Below are positions 1,335 to 38,606 of a stretch of 64,000 bases of DNA, in pieces; the stretch's first letter is position 1, and every line of letters begins with the position of its first letter. Source of the stretch: a virus (lineage: Duplodnaviria; Caudoviricetes). Location: the IMG/VR virus record IMGVR_UViG_3300034126_000020, positions 128,001-192,000 of that record. One strand, given 5' to 3'. Under the pieces are notes generated by a model, which saw nothing but the letters and a program-made list of their open reading frames with translations, was not told the DNA's origin and made no database searches. Both the position numbers and the translations under genes were made by a program.

Positions 1335-1574
1335 GTAGCGCTCCTAGTGTGTGCTGCTTCTCCCCAAGCAACGTGGTCCGGCATAACTGCCCGCCTGCCT
1401 CGGAAGACAAGCGGGCAAGCTAGAGGCTTTGTCGATCACTGTTCGATCGAGTCACATGTCGCGGCTGGCATGAGCCAGATCGTACAACAGTCCATCCGGG
1501 TAACACTCAGGCATCTACTCAGACGGACCTCGAGTAGAGACTGCTCACTGGGTGTGCACCCCCATGAGATGTGT

Positions 1575-1826
1575 TCAGTTACAGTTCATCGGAATGGGCG
1601 GATCGAACACCTCGGTAGTCACTAGACGACCACTGGCATTGCCCAGCCCATCTTCCTCAAGAACTATGAAGCCTTTGGAGCGCAGTAGATAAGGTTGCGG
1701 TGGAAGGGTGAAGAACCCATCTGGTGGAGTCCAACCTTCCAACTTCAACTTCTCCAGATCAATCGGAGGAGACGGGGGTGCTTCTAAACGCCGCCTACGA
1801 GCACCTTTACGATTGCACATTCTCAA
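1575..1826 (-). CDS. Small hypothetical protein
   Basis: 83-aa ORF with GGAG upstream of ATG. Confidence 0.45.
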   Translation of the reverse strand: MRMCNRKGARRRRLEAPPSPPIDLEKLKLEGWTPPDGFFTLPPQPYLLRSKGFIVLEEDGLGNASGRLVTTEVFDPPIPMNCN

Positions 1827-1841
1827 CTCCGAAATAAAAGA

Positions 1842-1955
1842 CAGTGAAGCCGTGCTCCTCTCGTGTCCGGGACTTTTCCCTCATCCTGAGGACTATACCC
1901 GCTGTTCACCTTACGAGGGTTACTTTGGGCTCGGCTAACGAGTACAGCTTCACTG
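1842..1955 (-). ncRNA. Putative structured RNA A (114 nt)
   Basis: 16-position closing stem CAGTGAAGCTGTACTC/GAGCACGGCTTCACTG (one GU pair, one mismatch), internal hairpins, followed by TCTTTT. Confidence 0.55.
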
Positions 1956-1964
1956 GCGCGCTCT

Positions 1965-2038
1965 TGGGGTGAACGGGGGAATCGAACCCTCGTGCGACGA
2001 TTCACAGTCGTCTGCCTTACCACTCGGCCACGCACACC
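1965..2038 (-). tRNA. trnH: tRNA-His(GUG)
   Basis: Anticodon arm GACGA-CTGTGAA-TCGTC, TTCGATT T-loop, encoded CCA; acceptor and T stems imperfect. Confidence 0.85.
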
Positions 2039-2111
2039 ACAAATTGAATCAACCAGCGGGACGGCGTCCGCCTACACCCTGCGCGCCGCGCAGGAATGCC
2101 ACTGATTGAAA

Positions 2112-2229
2112 GGGTCGTCCTAGGGAGACTCGAACTCCCGACCTCTGCCGCGTTGTTAAGCCCCTGATTCCCCCGCTGAGGAGGGAGGGGCTTGAAAGGC
2201 AGCGCTCTAACCGACTGAGCTACAGGACT
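2112..2229 (-). tRNA. tRNA-like gene with a hairpin inserted in the anticodon loop (identity uncertain)
   Basis: Canonical D arm GCTC-AGTCGGTTA-GAGC, T arm GGGAG-TTCGAGT-CTCCC and anticodon stem CTGCC/GGCAG, but the loop is 48 nt and the 3' end reads ACCC rather than ACCA. Confidence 0.75.
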
Positions 2230-2233
2230 AAAA

Positions 2234-2309
2234 TGGCTCCACGACCTGGACTCGAACCAGGGACACTACGGTTAACAGCCGTATGCTCTACCAACTGAGC
2301 TATCGCGGA
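2234..2309 (-). tRNA. trnN: tRNA-Asn(GUU)
   Basis: TACGG-CTGTTAA-CCGTA; full cloverleaf with CCA. Confidence 0.97.
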
Positions 2310-2310
2310 A

Positions 2311-2410
2311 TGGCGTTCACTGCTGGGCTGTACCCAGACCCCCTGAGCGACCTACCCTTGTCCGGTTGACCCGCAGGCGACCGAGGATAAGCTGCCAATG
2401 GGCAGTGAAC
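2311..2410 (-). ncRNA. Putative CCA-ended tRNA-mimic RNA B (100 nt)
   Basis: GTTCACTG/CAGTGAAC 8-bp stem + G + CCA; adjacent 5-bp hairpin CTGGG-TACAG-CCCAG; long irregular inner hairpin. Confidence 0.6.
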
Positions 2411-2419
2411 GGTTTATCA

Positions 2420-2532
2420 ACATCTTCAAGTAGATTTCACCTTGCCTACGCCGGTTGTTACTTTCTACTCGCTGACCCGAAGGTTGACTCCCTGCATCCA
2501 GGCTCACGCTTTAACTGGATACTTGAAGATGT
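2420..2532 (-). ncRNA. Putative structured RNA C (113 nt)
   Basis: 13-bp perfect terminal inverted repeat acatcttcaagta/tacttgaagatgt; inner ATCCAG/CTGGAT stem and ACC-TTCG-GGT tetraloop on the minus strand. Confidence 0.55.
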
Positions 2533-2539
2533 CGACAAC

Positions 2540-2614
2540 TGGAAGAGGTATCTGGGATCGAACCAGAGAATGATGGGATCAAAGCCCATTGCCTTACCGC
2601 TTGGCTATACCTCT
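2540..2614 (-). tRNA. trnQ: tRNA-Gln(UUG)
   Basis: ATGGG-CTTTGAT-CCCAT; cloverleaf with CCA. Confidence 0.95.
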
Positions 2615-2619
2615 AAATG

Positions 2620-2696
2620 TGGCGGCTCCAAGGGGACTTGAACCCCTGACCCCCGGCGTGACAGGCCGGTGCTCTAACCAACTGAGCTATGGAACC
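2620..2696 (-). tRNA. trnD: tRNA-Asp(GUC)
   Basis: CCGGC-CTGTCAC-GCCGG; cloverleaf with CCA. Confidence 0.97.
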
Positions 2697-2869
2697 TATG
2701 ACAGCTACCATCCCGCCGCGCTGCGGCCCGTCTACACTGCCAGCACCACGATCTTATTCAGACCGCTGCTGAGAATTGAGGTTGGGACCCGACGTGCGGC
2801 AATCCCGTCCTACGACGATTCATGGGAGGTACAACTCTGCATCCCACCGCCAAGGCAGTGGGCAATAAA

Positions 2870-2957
2870 TGGTGGAGAGAGAAGGATTTGAACCTTCGAA
2901 GTGCGATCGCACGTCAGATTTACAGTCTGATTCCTTTAACCGCTCGGAAACCTCTCC
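2870..2957 (-). tRNA. trnY: tRNA-Tyr(GUA)
   Basis: TCAGA-CTGTAAA-TCTGA; long variable arm; CCA. Confidence 0.97.
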
Positions 2958-2965
2958 GGATAGGG

Positions 2966-3065
2966 TGGAAAGGCCGGCGCCCAAAGCCGCAAGTGGCACG
3001 AATGCCGATCCCTTCGCTGCTCAAAGGCTGCACGGATCACGGCGGCGGAGGCGCCGGCCTTTCCA
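2966..3065 (-). ncRNA. Putative structured RNA D (100 nt)
   Basis: 16-bp perfect closing stem tggaaaggccggcgcc/ggcgccggcctttcca enclosing a branched GC-rich core. Confidence 0.55.
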
Positions 3066-3200
3066 AACGCTCGAAGCCTAGGACGTTTTTCGCCTACAAC
3101 CGTTTTAAGGGGTAAGGGACAAAGGCTCTTCACATAGACTACGTACATCGTGTATTTTTTTACACGATTACAAGGACTTACCGGAGAGACAGGCATAAAC

Positions 3201-3218
3201 GCCGTGCTTTTGCACGGC
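3201..3218. terminator. Hairpin downstream of 3235..4077
   Basis: gccgtgc-tttt-gcacggc flanked by gcata...tatgc. Confidence 0.5.
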
Positions 3219-3234
3219 GCTATGCAGGAGGGTG

Positions 3235-4077
3235 TTACACCAGACGACGGTTACCGTCGGCCAGTTGGACTTCGATTTCGATCTGGAAGTCTTCAGAGAA
3301 CGAGGAGGTCACGTGAGTGATACCGCGCTGTACGTCCATGCCGATGTCGAACAACAGTTCTTCACCGATGTCGCCCGAGATGCCGAAGCCACGCACCATC
3401 TTCTCAACGCGCACAGTGGCGTCGTCGATCTGATCGCCATTCGGACCAAAGACCTTGACGGACTTGACCGGGACGTTGTAGATAGTGCCGGTGTAGCAGC
3501 ATGCGTCGATCTGACCTTCCAGCGCCTTGAAGATGCGTGGCATGATGTCGAAGCGAGTGCCGTTGGCCACCGAGAAACGGATCAGTGCTTTGTGCTGAAC
3601 ACGGGCTTCTGGCAACAGCAGTTCCAGACGCTGGGTCAGAACGGTTTCCAGACCTTGCATCAGACGCAGTTGCTCTTGTTGCAGAGCAAGCTGGTGGATG
3701 TCGAGGACTGGCAGGTTTTCGATGCTGCTCAGTTGAGCTTCAGTCAGCTCTTCTTTTGGCAGCGTCAGCAGCTCTTGACGGAACAAGAAGTCAGAGAGCT
3801 TTTGAAGACGATCGTAGTTCTCAGCACGCTCGCCTTTGAGGCGCTGAATGAACGGAGGCAAATCGGAAGCATCACCGATAGCGATGTACGCTTTCTCGAA
3901 CGTTTCCACTGGCGAGAGGCTCACGTAACCGTCTTCGTATTCGACTACGTAGACTTCCTCTTCCATGTTTGGATGGTTACCGCCGACTGCGCGGGTTTCA
4001 GCAGCCAGGCTGCGGGACATCTTGGCAGCGCGAACAATCTTGGTGCCAGTGTAGTGTTGGTAGGTTGGAAGCGACAT
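3235..4077 (-). CDS. Multi-domain phage protein (YxGTK...YEDGY.S.SP..TFEKAY N-terminal domain, coiled coil, C-terminal beta domain)
   Basis: 280-aa ORF; N-terminal motif recognised from a widespread small phage protein family. Confidence 0.7.
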   Translation of the reverse strand: MSLPTYQHYTGTKIVRAAKMSRSLAAETRAVGGNHPNMEEEVYVVEYEDGYVSLSPVETFEKAYIAIGDASDLPPFIQRLKGERAENYDRLQKLSDFLFRQELLTLPKEELTEAQLSSIENLPVLDIHQLALQQEQLRLMQGLETVLTQRLELLLPEARVQHKALIRFSVANGTRFDIMPRIFKALEGQIDACCYTGTIYNVPVKSVKVFGPNGDQIDDATVRVEKMVRGFGISGDIGEELLFDIGMDVQRGITHVTSSFSEDFQIEIEVQLADGNRRLV

Positions 4078-4690: not shown

Positions 4691-5575
4691 TTACTTCAGT
4701 TGGTAGTCTTTGACGATCTTACCGCCGACTCCGGCGTTAATGACCATGGGGTTGATCCAGATGGTTTTACCAGATCGTTTATAAGTACGGTCATGACCAC
4801 GGCGATCATGTTCGCGACTCTGACGACGTTCACCGCAATCGCCAGTCTCAGTCCGACCTGCACTGACGATACGCTCTGACTTGTTGACCACCAGAATCCG
4901 GTAGCTGTCATACGGCAACGCTTTCTTACGTTGTTCGGTGAAGGTCATCTTCTTGGCAGGTATCTCCTGCTCAGAGATGTTACTGAAGGCAAAGGCTTCG
5001 CACAACTCACAGAGAGCCAGGGTTGGTCCTCGCATGGTGGCACCGGCCAGCTTCTCGAACCACTCCTTGCTCAGGCCAATGTCATTGGTCAGGGTGCAGG
5101 GGAGGATGCCGCTCTCAAGAAGCTCAAACATCGGGCCTTTCTCTGAGGGCATCTTGGCGATGAACGGTGCACTGATCCACGTGCTTTGATCAGGCACGTG
5201 ACTGACCACGGTGATCTCAATAGGGCCTGCGCCTTCCTGAGTGGCGATCACAATGATCTTGTCCCGATAACAGTGACCGGAGGTCATCAGTTTCAGTATC
5301 GGGTCCTCAATGTGGTGCAGGGCGGCTTCGGCTGCTATTGCTGCCAGATAGTCTTCCTTGTGGTAATACTCAATCACCACACAAGGGTAGGGCAACCGGA
5401 TCTTCTCCGGAAGACAACGCAGGTTGTTGTCCAACACCCGACCACCTTCCGGCAGTGCGAACTTAGGAGCTGTCATGGCTGCTTGAAGCGTCGCTGCCAA
5501 CTCATTGTTACCGGCAATCCGCTTCGAGCGTTTGAAGAACTCCATCGCTGTTCGGAAATAGTTAGGACCTTCCAT
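4691..5575 (-). CDS. Conserved phage protein with a C-terminal REHDRRGHxR..GK.IWI motif
   Basis: 294-aa ORF; basic His-containing C-terminal motif suggests nucleic-acid binding. Confidence 0.65.
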   Translation of the reverse strand: MEGPNYFRTAMEFFKRSKRIAGNNELAATLQAAMTAPKFALPEGGRVLDNNLRCLPEKIRLPYPCVVIEYYHKEDYLAAIAAEAALHHIEDPILKLMTSGHCYRDKIIVIATQEGAGPIEITVVSHVPDQSTWISAPFIAKMPSEKGPMFELLESGILPCTLTNDIGLSKEWFEKLAGATMRGPTLALCELCEAFAFSNISEQEIPAKKMTFTEQRKKALPYDSYRILVVNKSERIVSAGRTETGDCGERRQSREHDRRGHDRTYKRSGKTIWINPMVINAGVGGKIVKDYQLK

Positions 5576-6023
5576 TCTTTCTCCTGCTGTCGCCTAAGGC
5601 AACCGTGATATCTGCTTGGATGAACGGGTAGATGGCTCGGTAGACGTAACTGATGTCGTCTTCCCAGCTCAACCCGCCATGTCCACAGCCCATGGGTGGT
5701 AAGACAATGCGTCCGAGTCTGTGCCGTTGGGCCAAGACTGCAATCTTGTTGATGTGATGGACAACCAGACTACGGGGAGATGCGTCTCGCCAGTCTAGTT
5801 TCGTGGGCACCAACAGATAACGAATGTCGTTGTGTTTATACGTGATGATGTTCCCTGGCTCAATCGTTGGGTACATCTTGCGATAGTGCTTGTGAAGCCC
5901 TGGGACCGTGTTACGGGCAGTTCGAGCCACTCCGGCTCCCATTGCCCCGACCAGATTGATCGTGATCACACGGGTGTCCGCAGGGACGTCAAACAGGTCT
6001 TGTTCCACGATCGTTAGTGACAT
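5562..6023 (-). CDS. Macrodomain ADP-ribosyl hydrolase (DarG/Poa1p-like)
   Basis: NLVGAMGAGVA, PTKLDWRDAS and LPPMGCGHGGLSW motifs. Confidence 0.85.
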   Translation of the reverse strand: MSLTIVEQDLFDVPADTRVITINLVGAMGAGVARTARNTVPGLHKHYRKMYPTIEPGNIITYKHNDIRYLLVPTKLDWRDASPRSLVVHHINKIAVLAQRHRLGRIVLPPMGCGHGGLSWEDDISYVYRAIYPFIQADITVALGDSRRKNGRS

Positions 6024-6553: not shown

Positions 6554-8152
6554 TTAGACTGCCGCGCCTTCTACTTGGCTGATCTTCAGTGCGGCTAGGG
6601 TGAAAAAAACGTAACCGATGTCGATTGGGATCAAGTACGGATGCGTTTGGTCTTCAGGCTCCTTCTGGCACGCCGGGCACTTGACTTTCGGCAGGCCGAT
6701 GTAGGAGACCGTGGACTTCTTGATCCATTCGATGATTTCGTTGGTGAAGCGATCACCGACTTCTGGGTCTTCGGACAACATCTCGAGGATACGGTCTTTG
6801 TTCACCAGGTCATCGTAGATCACCGGCGCCGAGTCAGCGTCCAAGGCGTGCTCGAAGTGAGCCACCCAATGACTGTACTGACGCAGGTTCGTCAACGCAC
6901 CACTGCGCATGATGTGTCGAACGCGGTCCATCTCAGACAGACGCGCACCGAACGCATCGTTGGTCGCTTTGGAGATACCGTCAACCCACACGTGACCGGA
7001 ATCGATCTGTGCAGCCAGCGAAGGCACCTTCAATACCGCAGTCAGGTTGTTACCCAGTGCGATACGCTTTTCAGTGAAGGTGAACTCGGCTTGGTATTCA
7101 GCCAGCCACTTCGCATCACGCTTGGCGCTACGCGAGGCCATCTTCAGCGCTTGGCCCGGGGTGAACTTGGAACGGTCAACAAAGCCCATACGAGCAAAGT
7201 TGATCAGCACTTCGTCGACGTGCTTGCACTTGTCCGGATCGGCAACGCACGGCTGACGCAGCGGGTAACCGTCTGGGTACATTGCACAGGCCAGACCCCA
7301 CAGCACTTGCTGGTAGTCACGGCTACGGATCACGTCCATCAGCTCATCAACAGTCTCGCCAGTTTCAAAGGCGTAGTTGACGGAGACGACGTGCTCCAGA
7401 GCGAAGCGCATGTAGGTTTCAACAGTGTAGACTTCCACTGCCGAGAACACCATGCCGTTCGAGGAGCGACCGAGGTTCATCTTCTCCATGCGGGTCTTCT
7501 GTTCGAAGTCCAGCAGAGCCTGGATGGTCGGGGCACGGAAGGTGAGCCACAGACCGGTGTTCCACAATGGCACTTGCACCATCGAGCCTTGGCCAAAGGT
7601 CGCACGGATTGCCATGATCGGGTCTTTCATGTTGGCAGGTTTGACCTTACCAGCACCCAGAGCCGTTTCATTGTGCATCAACGTGTTGTGCCAGTTGCCT
7701 TCTTTGTCGATGCCGTCGAAGTACATGTCTTGCCATACGGCGGACAGACTGCGGGACAGGTTGACCAGACGGCGGTCTTCAGGCGAGAGGGTCTTGGCCT
7801 TCTCGTCAGTGAGATCGTTCAGACCACGGTGATCCATGATCATGCCCATCTCTTCCATGCCGACCTTCAGCGCAACGAGGCCTGGGCGACCTGGATCGAG
7901 GTCTTGACGTTTGAACATGGGTGACGCCATGGTGACGTGCGGGTTCGGACTGTCGAACTCTGCCCACAGTCCTTCGATTTCCATGCTGACTTCGGGTACT
8001 TGTTCTTCTGGAGCTTTAGCAGTGGCCGCTGCTGTGGTGGCTTGGGCGAATGCTTCAGCGCTGGTAGCGCCGTCTACGTTCGGTACCAAGTTGGACGTGT
8101 CCAATTCCACCTCGTCCATTCCTTCATTCTGGGGTTTCTGGTCGTCGCTCAT
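6554..8152 (-). CDS. Conserved Chimalliviridae protein (phiKZ gp77-like); T4 gp26-like tail/baseplate-hub assembly chaperone
   Basis: 532 aa; C-terminal VKCPACQK...YVFF resembles T4 gp26 IKCPECGK...EFF. Confidence 0.65.
   Translation of the reverse strand: MSDDQKPQNEGMDEVELDTSNLVPNVDGATSAEAFAQATTAAATAKAPEEQVPEVSMEIEGLWAEFDSPNPHVTMASPMFKRQDLDPGRPGLVALKVGMEEMGMIMDHRGLNDLTDEKAKTLSPEDRRLVNLSRSLSAVWQDMYFDGIDKEGNWHNTLMHNETALGAGKVKPANMKDPIMAIRATFGQGSMVQVPLWNTGLWLTFRAPTIQALLDFEQKTRMEKMNLGRSSNGMVFSAVEVYTVETYMRFALEHVVSVNYAFETGETVDELMDVIRSRDYQQVLWGLACAMYPDGYPLRQPCVADPDKCKHVDEVLINFARMGFVDRSKFTPGQALKMASRSAKRDAKWLAEYQAEFTFTEKRIALGNNLTAVLKVPSLAAQIDSGHVWVDGISKATNDAFGARLSEMDRVRHIMRSGALTNLRQYSHWVAHFEHALDADSAPVIYDDLVNKDRILEMLSEDPEVGDRFTNEIIEWIKKSTVSYIGLPKVKCPACQKEPEDQTHPYLIPIDIGYVFFTLAALKISQVEGAAV
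6602..6608 (-). other. Candidate -1 ribosomal slippery heptamer T_TTT_TTC
   Basis: Codons GTT TTT TTC; the -1 frame runs stop-free into ATG 6512. Confidence 0.7.
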
Positions 8153-8164
8153 GTCTCTGCCTTA

Positions 8165-8608
8165 TCACGCAGTTTTCTTTTCGGAACGAACAAGATCACC
8201 AATCAGGTCCATCAGCTCACCGGAATGGGGAGAGACGGTTGCAGTGGTCTGTTCAATGAAATCATAGTAATCACCACCGGCCTTCAACAGGACAGGGTGA
8301 TTAGGATTATTCAACACAGCTGAGGTGATCTCAGCGCTGTGCTTGGACTTGATCCCGTCGAGACGTTTCTTCATCTCTTCCAGATCACGTTTGATGATGC
8401 GGGTCAGCTCAGCGACGCGCTTGCCGTTTGGAGATTTGCTCCAGTCGTAACGAGCAGCGTCTTGGGTGGTTGTAGCGAAACTGTGCAGAAGTCTCAAGGA
8501 CTGTTGGTGAAGGGACTGCAACCCCTGACTCCGTGTAAGCTTGGACATGATCGTTTGAACCCCAGTAATATGGAAAATGGACTGGCCAATTATTTGTACT
8601 TTACTCAT
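8165..8608 (-). CDS. Conserved hypothetical protein (start may be 8548)
   Basis: 147-aa helical ORF upstream of the chaperone gene. Confidence 0.7.
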   Translation of the reverse strand: MSKVQIIGQSIFHITGVQTIMSKLTRSQGLQSLHQQSLRLLHSFATTTQDAARYDWSKSPNGKRVAELTRIIKRDLEEMKKRLDGIKSKHSAEITSAVLNNPNHPVLLKAGGDYYDFIEQTTATVSPHSGELMDLIGDLVRSEKKTA

Positions 8609-36695: not shown

Positions 36696-38606
36696 TTAGA
36701 AGCTATTGCCGAAGCCAAAGCCGTTACCAACGTTGCCACGCAGCGAACGAGCGCCGTCACCAGTCACGCGGCGGCTCGAGAGCATGCCGTGAGTGAGGTC
36801 ACCGCCGACGAAGTCACGGATGCGAGTGTTACCACGCAGGCGACGGTTGCCGAAGGTGTAGTGAGCGGAACGCTGGTCGATGTTGATTTTGCAATCAGCA
36901 ACGGCCATTGCCAGCGCTTCGATGAACTGCGGGTTGACGAAAGCCAGGTCTACGTAACGAGCGAACTTCACGTTGCTCGCGCCGAGGGCGCTGGTCAGTT
37001 GGTCGTACTGCTCGCTGACGCGGATTTCTACGTCCAGGTCAACGCGGTCGATCACGTCCTGATAACGCAGGGCAGATTCGCCTTCGTCATTCGGGTTGGT
37101 GGCCATCCAGCGCAGCAGGTCCCATTCACGCAGATCGCGCTCGTTGCCCTTCTCGTCGATCCAGGTGCCAGTCAGGTAACGAGCACCGGACATTTGCAGC
37201 GGGGTTTCGACGCCCAGTTCACGGGCACGGCGGGTGAAGTTGCCGTTGGTCAGACGGTCGGCGTAGTCGTACAGACGGCCGATGGCGTCCTTGTTGGCGC
37301 TGTCGTCAGTAGCAGCGTCGGACAGCAGGGAGGTGATCCAGCTGTTGTCGCCGCCTTCTTCCAGCTCGATAGCCCAGGCCAGGTTGTCGTCAACCAGGCT
37401 GAAGAAGTACTGAGCCCACTTGTGGGTGTCCAGCGACGCACGGTTGTCGAACTCGACCGGAGTCTTGTCCTGATCCGGGCCGAGGATGTTCAGCAGGCCA
37501 GCATCACGGTGGTCGATTTCGCCGCGAGCGATGTCGCCCGGCAGGTAGGTCTGAGCCCACGCTTGGTCTTTCGAGATGACCGACGCACCAGCCAGAGCCA
37601 GCAACAGCAGCTCAGGGGTGATGCCGTTGGCGTTGGTGTCCATGCGGTTGATCACGTACATCGGAGTGAAGTACGGCTGATCACGGCGCTGGGTACGGCT
37701 CCAACGATCTTGTTCGACCGGCGGGGTGTACATGATGCTGACGTAACCGCCCAGGTTGGCCAGGCCAACAGGGATGTTCTGGTCGCCTTTGCGCACGATG
37801 CCGGCAACGGTAACGGCCAGGTCGGAACGACGTGGCAGACCGTCAGCGGTCATGGCTTCACGGCCAGACAGGTCGACGTTGATTTCCAGGGTCGATTGCT
37901 TGCTCAGCCAGTCCAGCGAGAAGAACAGGTCAGGCTGGAACAGGTTGCTGTAGATCGCTGCCAGAGCGGCCTGGGCGTAGAACACGACCTGACGCACTTC
38001 GGTGTTTTCCGGATCGTTGAAGTCCACTTTGTGGGACACTACGCGCCAGCCGGCACGAACGATCTCGACGCTACGGCGCGACTGATCGAAAGCCTTCTTC
38101 GCGATTTCGTCAACCAGAGCCAGGTAGCTCTCGGTGATGTAGTCGGAGGCGATGATCGGCAGCGGGTAGGTGCGATGGTTGATTTCGACGTTACGCACGG
38201 TGGCGTCGTCGGTCATGCTCGAGGACAGAGCCAGAGCCGACACCAGAACCTTGACGGTGCCGTTGTCTTCGACTGGGTAAGCCAGGATCACCGAGGAGAT
38301 GCTGACGTTGTGCTCGGAAGCTTCCAGACCCAGAACTTGGATCTTGGAGAGGTCGATCAGGCCGGCGCCTGCAACCTGACGCTCTGGATCGAACCAGTGC
38401 TTAACCGACTTAACAGCGTTGACCAGAACTTCGCCGCTGATGCGACGGGACATCGGTGCGCCGAGCAGGCGGTTGATGTCCAGCAGGCCAGCGGTGCCAG
38501 CCTGCGATTCACGGGCAGGGCGCTCAGCACGTTCGCTGCGAGGTTGTTCGGTGCGCGGACGCTCGTTGCTCGAAGCGGTGTTGTCGATGTCGTCTTGTAC
38601 AGCCAT
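36696..38606 (-). CDS. chmA: Chimallin, major nuclear shell protein (phiKZ gp54-like)
   Basis: 636 aa directly upstream of the nvRNAP catalytic subunit; disordered N-terminus, G/F-rich C-terminal tail, extreme codon bias, own promoter and terminator. Confidence 0.88.
   Translation of the reverse strand: MAVQDDIDNTASSNERPRTEQPRSERAERPARESQAGTAGLLDINRLLGAPMSRRISGEVLVNAVKSVKHWFDPERQVAGAGLIDLSKIQVLGLEASEHNVSISSVILAYPVEDNGTVKVLVSALALSSSMTDDATVRNVEINHRTYPLPIIASDYITESYLALVDEIAKKAFDQSRRSVEIVRAGWRVVSHKVDFNDPENTEVRQVVFYAQAALAAIYSNLFQPDLFFSLDWLSKQSTLEINVDLSGREAMTADGLPRRSDLAVTVAGIVRKGDQNIPVGLANLGGYVSIMYTPPVEQDRWSRTQRRDQPYFTPMYVINRMDTNANGITPELLLLALAGASVISKDQAWAQTYLPGDIARGEIDHRDAGLLNILGPDQDKTPVEFDNRASLDTHKWAQYFFSLVDDNLAWAIELEEGGDNSWITSLLSDAATDDSANKDAIGRLYDYADRLTNGNFTRRARELGVETPLQMSGARYLTGTWIDEKGNERDLREWDLLRWMATNPNDEGESALRYQDVIDRVDLDVEIRVSEQYDQLTSALGASNVKFARYVDLAFVNPQFIEALAMAVADCKINIDQRSAHYTFGNRRLRGNTRIRDFVGGDLTHGMLSSRRVTGDGARSLRGNVGNGFGFGNSF

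Follow-up and report, generated by a model that had tools for sequence, protein, structure and literature searches.

Phage tRNA clusters that hold extra stable RNAs have been known since T4. In the T4 record, rnaC and rnaD stand on the tRNA strand directly behind tRNA-Arg, at 1 and 6 nt, and to our knowledge the function of these two genes (species 1 and 2 RNAs) has never been explained. In the chimallivirus 201phi2-1, Oxford Nanopore Technologies (ONT)-cappable-seq revealed a small RNA derived from a 5' untranslated region immediately upstream of a tRNA-Leu gene, under a middle promoter (PMC11512511), and an IMG/VR-wide catalogue of candidate structured RNAs is stated to hold 8,495 candidates (PMC10690425). 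Here, we describe a single compact tRNA operon (positions 1831-3137, minus strand) in a 64,000-nt stretch of viral DNA, referred to as the window, which comprises bases 128001-192000 of IMG/VR record IMGVR_UViG_3300034126_000020, a complete genome of 276,810 bp with terminal repeats. The operon interleaves six tRNAs with five non-tRNA modules, designated A, C, D, E and F, and the folds of these modules are kept by selection on the tRNA strand.

The chimallin (nuclear-shell protein) gene is located at window positions 36696-38606 and the window also codes for split multisubunit RNA polymerase subunits, and the phage is thus assigned to the nucleus-forming jumbo phages (chimalliviruses). Its closest cultured relative is Pseudomonas phage pPa_SNUABM_DT01 (DT01), with 54.5% identity across a 958-amino-acid (aa) virion protein, and DT01 carries a syntenic locus of the operon. 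Searches with the 280-aa gene upstream of the operon recovered two close genomes, G001 (L001, 83% aa identity) and G002 (L002, 70%), and chimallin as a query gave ten further records; a metagenome scan with the neighbour protein gave no additional usable locus.

In transcription order, the operon consists of A (3065-2966), tRNA-Tyr, spacer B (2869-2697), tRNA-Asp, tRNA-Gln, C (2537-2415), D (2410-2311), tRNA-Asn, a tRNA with an insert, E (2109-2049), tRNA-His, F (1955-1842) and a U-tract, with linkers of 0-10 nt. ARAGORN and Rfam agree on tRNA-Tyr (GUA, CCA encoded, 2870-2957), tRNA-Asp (GUC, 2620-2696), tRNA-Gln (UUG, 2540-2614), tRNA-Asn (GUU, 2234-2309) and tRNA-His (GUG, 1966-2038; entirely absent from G001), all on the minus strand. 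A preliminary description of this DNA counted five tRNAs, which is also the number reported by ARAGORN with default settings; the correct count is six, since a tRNA with a covarying 41-43-nt hairpin inside its anticodon loop (2115-2229, minus strand) was found by Rfam (52.4 bits), by ARAGORN with introns allowed and in the folds of three homologues. The six operon tRNAs are all the tRNAs of the genome. The spacers had been described as free of credible open reading frames (ORFs), and none was found.

Folding was scored as z against dinucleotide shuffles. Modules A, C, D, E and F form multibranch folds with closing helices of 8-19 bp and z-scores of -3.0 to -5.1. Five stem-closed elements had been listed in the preliminary description, four of which hold up (A, 2966-3065; C, then given as 2420-2532; D, 2311-2410; and F, 1842-1955), whereas the fifth (2705-2862, in spacer B; z=-0.65) does not; E (61 nt, 2049-2109, z=-3.5) is a stem-closed module absent from that list. 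A scan of the whole 276.8-kb genome for perfect stems of at least 9 bp enclosing 30-140 nt gave a density of 0.32 per kb, and the 1.35-kb operon stretch contains five vs 0.43 expected (about 11 times denser). The only two perfect stems of at least 12 bp in the genome are those of A and C. Together, the helices of C, D, E and F contain 40 G-U cells vs 0 A-C cells, which places the RNAs on the strand of the tRNAs, as had been proposed; the minus strand also folds better than the plus strand for B, C, D and E. Conservation of the stems in relatives, a check named in the preliminary description, was found together with abundant compensatory changes, set out below by module.

Module A (2966-3065, minus strand; z=-5.1) is a conserved leader that heads the tRNA cluster, with the same architecture in five genomes. 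A GC-rich closing stem of 16-19 bp (P1) leads to a second helix (P2) and then to a three-way junction, the arms of which are an invariant hairpin (GCAGC-CUUUGA-GCAGC) and a variable hairpin, and this architecture was recovered from independent minimum-energy folds of the homologues. The five-genome alignment has 34 pairs with 98.8% of 170 cells paired, and 20 of the 34 pairs are changed on both sides vs 8.5 in shuffles (0/500 as high as the observed value), and pairing in slid controls is 35-45%. These alignments are model-based, and RNAalifold on a MAFFT alignment mis-registered the stem. Covariance model R3, built from G002, G008 and DT01 only with the window left out, finds A of the window at 91.8 bits as its sole match in the genome. 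Wherever A was detected by covariance model (five genomes, cultured DT01 included), it stands ahead of the first tRNA; ACC lies 3' of P1 in four of the five, and in the window tRNA-Tyr starts 8 nt past P1. Scanning IMG/VR with the core pattern of A returned only the two close relatives, and five loci from a looser pattern were chance matches rejected by model R1. R1 was too narrow to find A of G008 by genome search; a local search did find it.

Genome G010 holds a 127-nt element (L025:436-562, z=-3.1) approximately 180 nt upstream of tRNA-Asn that has an A-like architecture, with an 11-bp clamp, a three-way junction and a GGCAGCC...GGCGGCC hairpin. This element is possibly a divergent A-family member; neither R1 nor R3 detected it, and it was left out of the A count.

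Module F (1842-1955, minus strand; z=-3.0) joins a variable 12-bp clamp stem to a conserved core (AAGUARCCCUCGUAAGGYGAA ... AUAG ... hairpin ... GGAAAA.GCC), which includes AAGUAACCCUCGUAAGGUGAA, and belongs to a family that is also found outside tRNA operons, in unrelated phages. The core pattern led to four more IMG/VR contigs, and covariance model R2 gives nine members in all (38-143 bits). Over these nine phage contigs, 30 pairs are 90.3% paired and 16 are changed on both sides vs 8.8 in shuffles (0/500), with slid controls approximately 40% paired. Eleven of the 12 clamp pairs covary; the clamp is the least conserved part (one invariant column), and 24 of the 54 unpaired interior columns are invariant. 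On contig L036, which codes for a primase, a Sak4-like annealing protein and a single-stranded DNA-binding protein, F is convergent to a tRNA cluster and stands between two simple terminators. There is no nearby tRNA on L041, a contig of a 40-kb record with a replication-initiation gene, or on L042, from a 43.5-kb record, where two tested ORFs neighbouring F match no PHROG family. The core pattern had no match in GTDB genomes, and F alone had none by BLAST against 50,697 phage records; at the sensitivity used, neither GTDB genomes nor cultured phages contain F.

In the window, the closing stem of F is followed by a U-rich tract (GUCUUUUAUUU, 1831-1841, minus strand), the probable operon terminator; the arrangement is the same in G001 and G008, and U-runs follow the clamp in these three genomes and not in G010. 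Stem and U-tract together probably end the operon. The conserved 90-nt core and the placement on L036 indicate that F goes beyond a terminator.

Module D (2311-2410, minus strand; z=-3.4) is a three-way junction with an end helix of 8-9 bp and GCCA. In each of the three genomes that carry D, the 8-bp end helix runs directly on into a 6-bp hairpin, and the remainder is a long irregular arm with an exchangeable tip. On the 3' side, an unpaired G and CCA lie 1 nt ahead of the RNase P site of tRNA-Asn; the tail reads GCCA in two genomes and ACA in G001. The three-genome alignment has 36 pairs, 99.1% paired, of which six are changed on both sides vs 2.0 in shuffles (0/500). An acceptor-end helix with CCA is the part of a tRNA that is read by RNase P and the CCA-adding enzyme, and D, as modelled, is a predicted acceptor/T-like minihelix without the remainder of a tRNA. 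The core pattern of D found only the same two close relatives in IMG/VR.

Module C (2415-2537, minus strand; z=-3.1) begins 2 nt past the CCA of tRNA-Gln and has a closing stem of approximately 19 bp, which lengthens its listed extent, around two hairpins, one GUGA-capped and one with UUCG, and a conserved single strand rich in purines. It is present in G001 at 85% identity, with a GAAA hairpin in place of the UUCG hairpin, and absent from G002; over the two genomes that carry it, 36 pairs include 8 G-U cells and none is broken. Module E (2049-2109, minus strand) has an 11-bp closing stem around two hairpins, and its 24 pairs are 100% paired in three genomes with three compensatory pairs (18/500 shuffles reach the observed value). 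E always directly follows the insert tRNA, and both are missing together from G008 and DT01.

The modules are gained and lost one by one between close relatives, as tRNA genes are. In G001, tRNA-His and B are missing, Tyr directly adjoins Asp (L001), and a cassette of 234 nt separates Asp from Gln; G002 has neither C nor F and carries other cassettes. G008 reads A-Tyr-Y1-Asp-Gln-Asn-Ser with F behind a small ORF and lacks C, D, E and the insert tRNA, and DT01 reads A-Asn-Asp. Each module is single-copy per genome. Spacer B (2697-2869, minus strand) and the cassettes X1 (L001) and X2 (L002) are genome-specific; B had only its self-match by BLAST and no counterpart in the relatives by DNA search.

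The Y1 cassette (65 nt, minus strand) lies between tRNA-Tyr and tRNA-Asp in G002 (L002:7219-7283) and G008 (L024:1194-1258) and is absent from the window; it contains a GCAA-capped hairpin with pairing kept via two compensatory changes. Larger cassettes of the relatives contain T-arm-like motifs (GCGGGUUCGAGUCCCGC; L001:7291-7524, L002:7633-7831, L002:8020-8170 and L008:3415-3490), and one has a closing stem of 10 bp. The relatives also hold degenerate tRNA-like sequences below the Rfam threshold that are reminiscent of T4 rnaC.

Modules A, C, D, E and F match no described RNA family in Rfam. Rfam 15, searched with the whole window at the gathering threshold and with positions 1400-3600 at E-values up to 10, returned tRNAs only, plus chance matches over tRNAs, and ARAGORN found no cloverleaf, tRNA or tmRNA in the five modules (introns allowed, relaxed thresholds, tmRNA mode). 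BLAST of the operon against the 50,697 phage records matched only the tRNAs. For the conserved loops of the modules, the phage genome offers no antisense target except their own complementary strand, and the complete genome has no gene for Ro/TROVE (PF05731), RtcB or RNase III.

Of the described systems, T4 offers the parallel that the preliminary description had drawn, and it is apt. Like the modules, T4 rnaC and rnaD are non-tRNA genes (approximately 120-140 nt) that share the strand of the tRNAs and are separated by 1-6 nt from the next tRNA or module, and rnaC is strongly folded (z=-4.6). A canonical T-arm (CCGGGUUCGAAUCCCGG) is present in rnaC and in none of the five modules, and T4 has two such RNAs at one cluster end, whereas here five are interleaved and closed by long helices in a nucleus-forming phage. 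Model R2 of F, the sole module model run on the T4 region, had no match there, and no homology of F to rnaC or rnaD was seen; for A, C, D and E, the T-arm that rnaC has and they lack argues indirectly against homology. The RNase III stalks of bacterial rRNA operons are a possible second likeness, in that the flanks of an RNA to be excised form a helix, nearly perfect in A (16-19 bp) and C (approximately 19 bp); however, the stems of D, E and F are of 8-12 bp, the enclosed RNAs of approximately 60-100 nt are not rRNAs, and the phage has no RNase III. D resembles tRNA mimics (the tRNA-like domain of tmRNA, YrlA) in its predicted end helix stacked on a hairpin and followed by an unpaired G and CCA, but it has no T-loop sequence, D arm or tag ORF and no Rfam tRNA, tmRNA or YrlA match, and the phage lacks the Ro/TROVE partner protein of Y RNA and YrlA. 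Like A, the 201phi2-1 small RNA, from a nucleus-forming phage of Pseudomonas, is a short non-coding RNA in the leader of a tRNA transcription unit; unlike A, it folds into two small hairpins with no long closing stem, and R3 has no match in that genome.

At the upstream boundary of the operon, a hairpin (GCGCCGUGC-AAAA-GCACGGCG followed by UUUAU; 3195-3220, minus strand) closes the 280-aa gene and is conserved in L001 and L002. It was not picked up by a simple terminator scan, and it marks where a separate transcription unit starts. Downstream of it, the conserved motif CUAUGUGAA (3129-3137, minus strand) is identical in L001 and L002, with similar sequences in G008 (ACTATGTGGAA) and DT01 (GATATGTGAAA), and is a putative phage RNA polymerase promoter or operon start region. 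The CTATGTGRA motif is not enriched across the window (two copies only, not significant), so the promoter call draws on conservation and position.

We consider the modules to be stable passenger RNAs that are excised along with the tRNAs, like T4 rnaC and rnaD, and the locus to be one operon of six tRNAs and five independent small RNA genes, and we give this reading a probability of roughly 60%. The whole array would be made as one precursor, from the CUAUGUGAA region just past the hairpin of the upstream gene to the U-tract of F. Host tRNA-maturation enzymes would also free the modules, with RNase P acting at the 5' sides of the tRNAs along with RNase E/Z and 3' exonucleases, and RNase III possibly cutting within the long A and C stems (16-19 bp). 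The modules would then persist as stable small RNAs because both of their ends would be buried in the closing helix. D could be handled like a tRNA, via its 8+6-bp acceptor/T-like stack and GCCA, and the clamp stem of F with the U-tract would double as the operon terminator. A and F may each bind a specific partner in trans, as the sequence-invariant loops and junctions suggest.

Several points weigh against excision of stable RNAs along with the tRNAs. Co-transcription, the cleavage sites and the stability of the modules are all inferred. The 201phi2-1 precedent is positional only, as its leader lacks an A-like fold. C, D and E rest on just two to three closely related genomes, and alignments fitted to a covariance model lean towards the structure of that model. 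The CCA of D is not conserved (ACA in G001), and D has neither a D arm nor an anticodon arm. F is convergent to the tRNAs on L036 and far from any on L041 and L042, so F at least needs no tRNA processing.

A different and appreciably less probable explanation is that the modules act in cis only, as punctuation or insulators that prevent misfolding of the tRNAs and present cleavage sites, and are then degraded with no function in trans. Such a role would suit modules that are each self-contained with paired ends and short linkers, the long perfect stems of A and C do resemble RNase III processing stalks, and the stem of F with its U-tract can terminate transcription. Insulation is not needed, however, because Asp and Gln, and Asn and the insert tRNA, are 4-5 nt apart with no module between them and relatives manage in the absence of C, D, E or F. 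Copies of F are also found where there are no tRNAs. Conservation in A and F is strongest in the unpaired loops and junctions and weakest in the closing stem, the reverse of what would be expected of a mere clamp, and these conserved unpaired cores favour a specific partner over a pure clamp in cis.

Carried further, those cores allow the tentative view that A and F are new classes of trans-acting phage RNAs, with a host or phage partner that recognises the invariant loops. F would then be an autonomous, horizontally spreading RNA gene common to nucleus-forming jumbo phages and approximately 40-kb phages, maybe a small ribozyme, a sponge for proteins or, as in the preliminary description, a counter-defence RNA. 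We regard this as possible, with the odds clearly against it.

The preliminary description had proposed that the released RNAs are decoys or antitoxin mimics directed against RNA-targeting host defences (anticodon nucleases, toxin-antitoxin RNases, Cas13), and this we consider doubtful. GUN-family and Gln tRNAs are typical nuclease targets, and it is beside such tRNAs that the modules lie. Phage tRNAs are put forward as counter-defence in the literature (PMC10264068). The mimicry of an acceptor end by D, a turnover of modules that resembles that of accessory genes and a Macro-domain gene upstream all fit the proposal. Against it, no module contains an anticodon-loop mimic or matches a known antitoxin, decoy or Y-RNA family, the cognate proteins Ro, RtcB and RNase III are not encoded by the phage, and function is not readable from these folds.

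A very unlikely explanation is that turnover of tRNA genes left the spacers behind, either as decayed tRNA genes or as neutral filler. B, genome-specific and not significantly folded, would suit this origin, as would the degenerate tRNA-like sequences of the relatives and their cassettes with T-arm-like GGUUCGA (L001 X1, L002 X2 and 8020-8170, DT01 3415-3490). A, C, D, E and F, however, show no cloverleaf even at relaxed thresholds, their closing stems are of 8-19 bp rather than 7 bp, and pairing is kept through many compensatory changes. Covariation refutes decay for A, D, E and F, and the explanation stands for B only. Elements acting at the DNA level (miniature inverted-repeat transposons, recombination sites or protein-binding palindromes) are the most improbable explanation, for despite terminal inverted repeats and a presence that varies among close relatives, each module is single-copy in every genome with a terminal sequence of its own, there are no multiple copies sharing terminal repeats, and the G-U pairs that outnumber A-C cells 40 to 0 on the tRNA strand would be mismatches in the complementary strand.

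To the non-tRNA RNAs known from phage tRNA clusters, this operon adds five new, structurally well-supported examples from a jumbo phage of the nucleus-forming kind. Two of the families are tractable: A, which is present in the cultured phage pPa_SNUABM_DT01, and F, which has a highly conserved core and is common to unrelated phages. Defined boundaries, invariant nucleotides as targets for mutation and, for one of the RNAs, a phage-host pair in culture make the question of function that dates from the T4 era testable. Presumably, the tRNA precursors arise within the phage nucleus, whereas the processing enzymes are cytoplasmic, and how the operon RNAs travel and mature bears on RNA export in nucleus-forming phages. 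Were the modules passive spacers, the locus would still provide a corrected annotation (six tRNAs and five non-coding RNA genes) and three covariance models.

The insert tRNA (window 2115-2229; L001:7916-8027; L002:7832-7940) has canonical D and T arms, a mismatched 1-72 pair and a 3' end of ACC-C. The stem sequence of its anticodon-loop hairpin is wholly different among the three genomes, between conserved flanks. The anticodon assigned by ARAGORN is UCA (called SeC) in the window vs UUC (Glu) in the two relatives, owing to a U-run that is shorter by one in the window (UUUCA vs UUUUCA). The tRNA set as a whole (1966-2957) covers all four GUN/queuosine-family anticodons (Tyr, His, Asn and Asp) together with Gln (UUG) and the insert tRNA, and Asn, Asp and Tyr are repeatedly retained in relatives (G008, DT01 and L036). 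This set may serve to replace nuclease-targeted host tRNAs rather than to supply codons.

Upstream of the operon, the gene at 5562-6023 (minus strand) had been described as Cx5R phosphatase-like; it has no Cx5R motif and instead matches the Pfam Macro domain (E=8e-5). Its product contains the motifs NLVGAMGAG and PPMGCGHGG, and the DT01 annotation is tyrosine phosphatase. Elsewhere in the window, an ORF-free stretch at 1379-1574 (minus strand), upstream of the gene at 951-1334, is rich in hairpins with a strong hairpin at its end. This stretch is a candidate conserved 5' leader or additional small RNA; its identity to G001, G002, G008, G009, G010 and DT01 is 74-89%, which exceeds the 70% aa identity of the operon-upstream 280-aa gene in G002.

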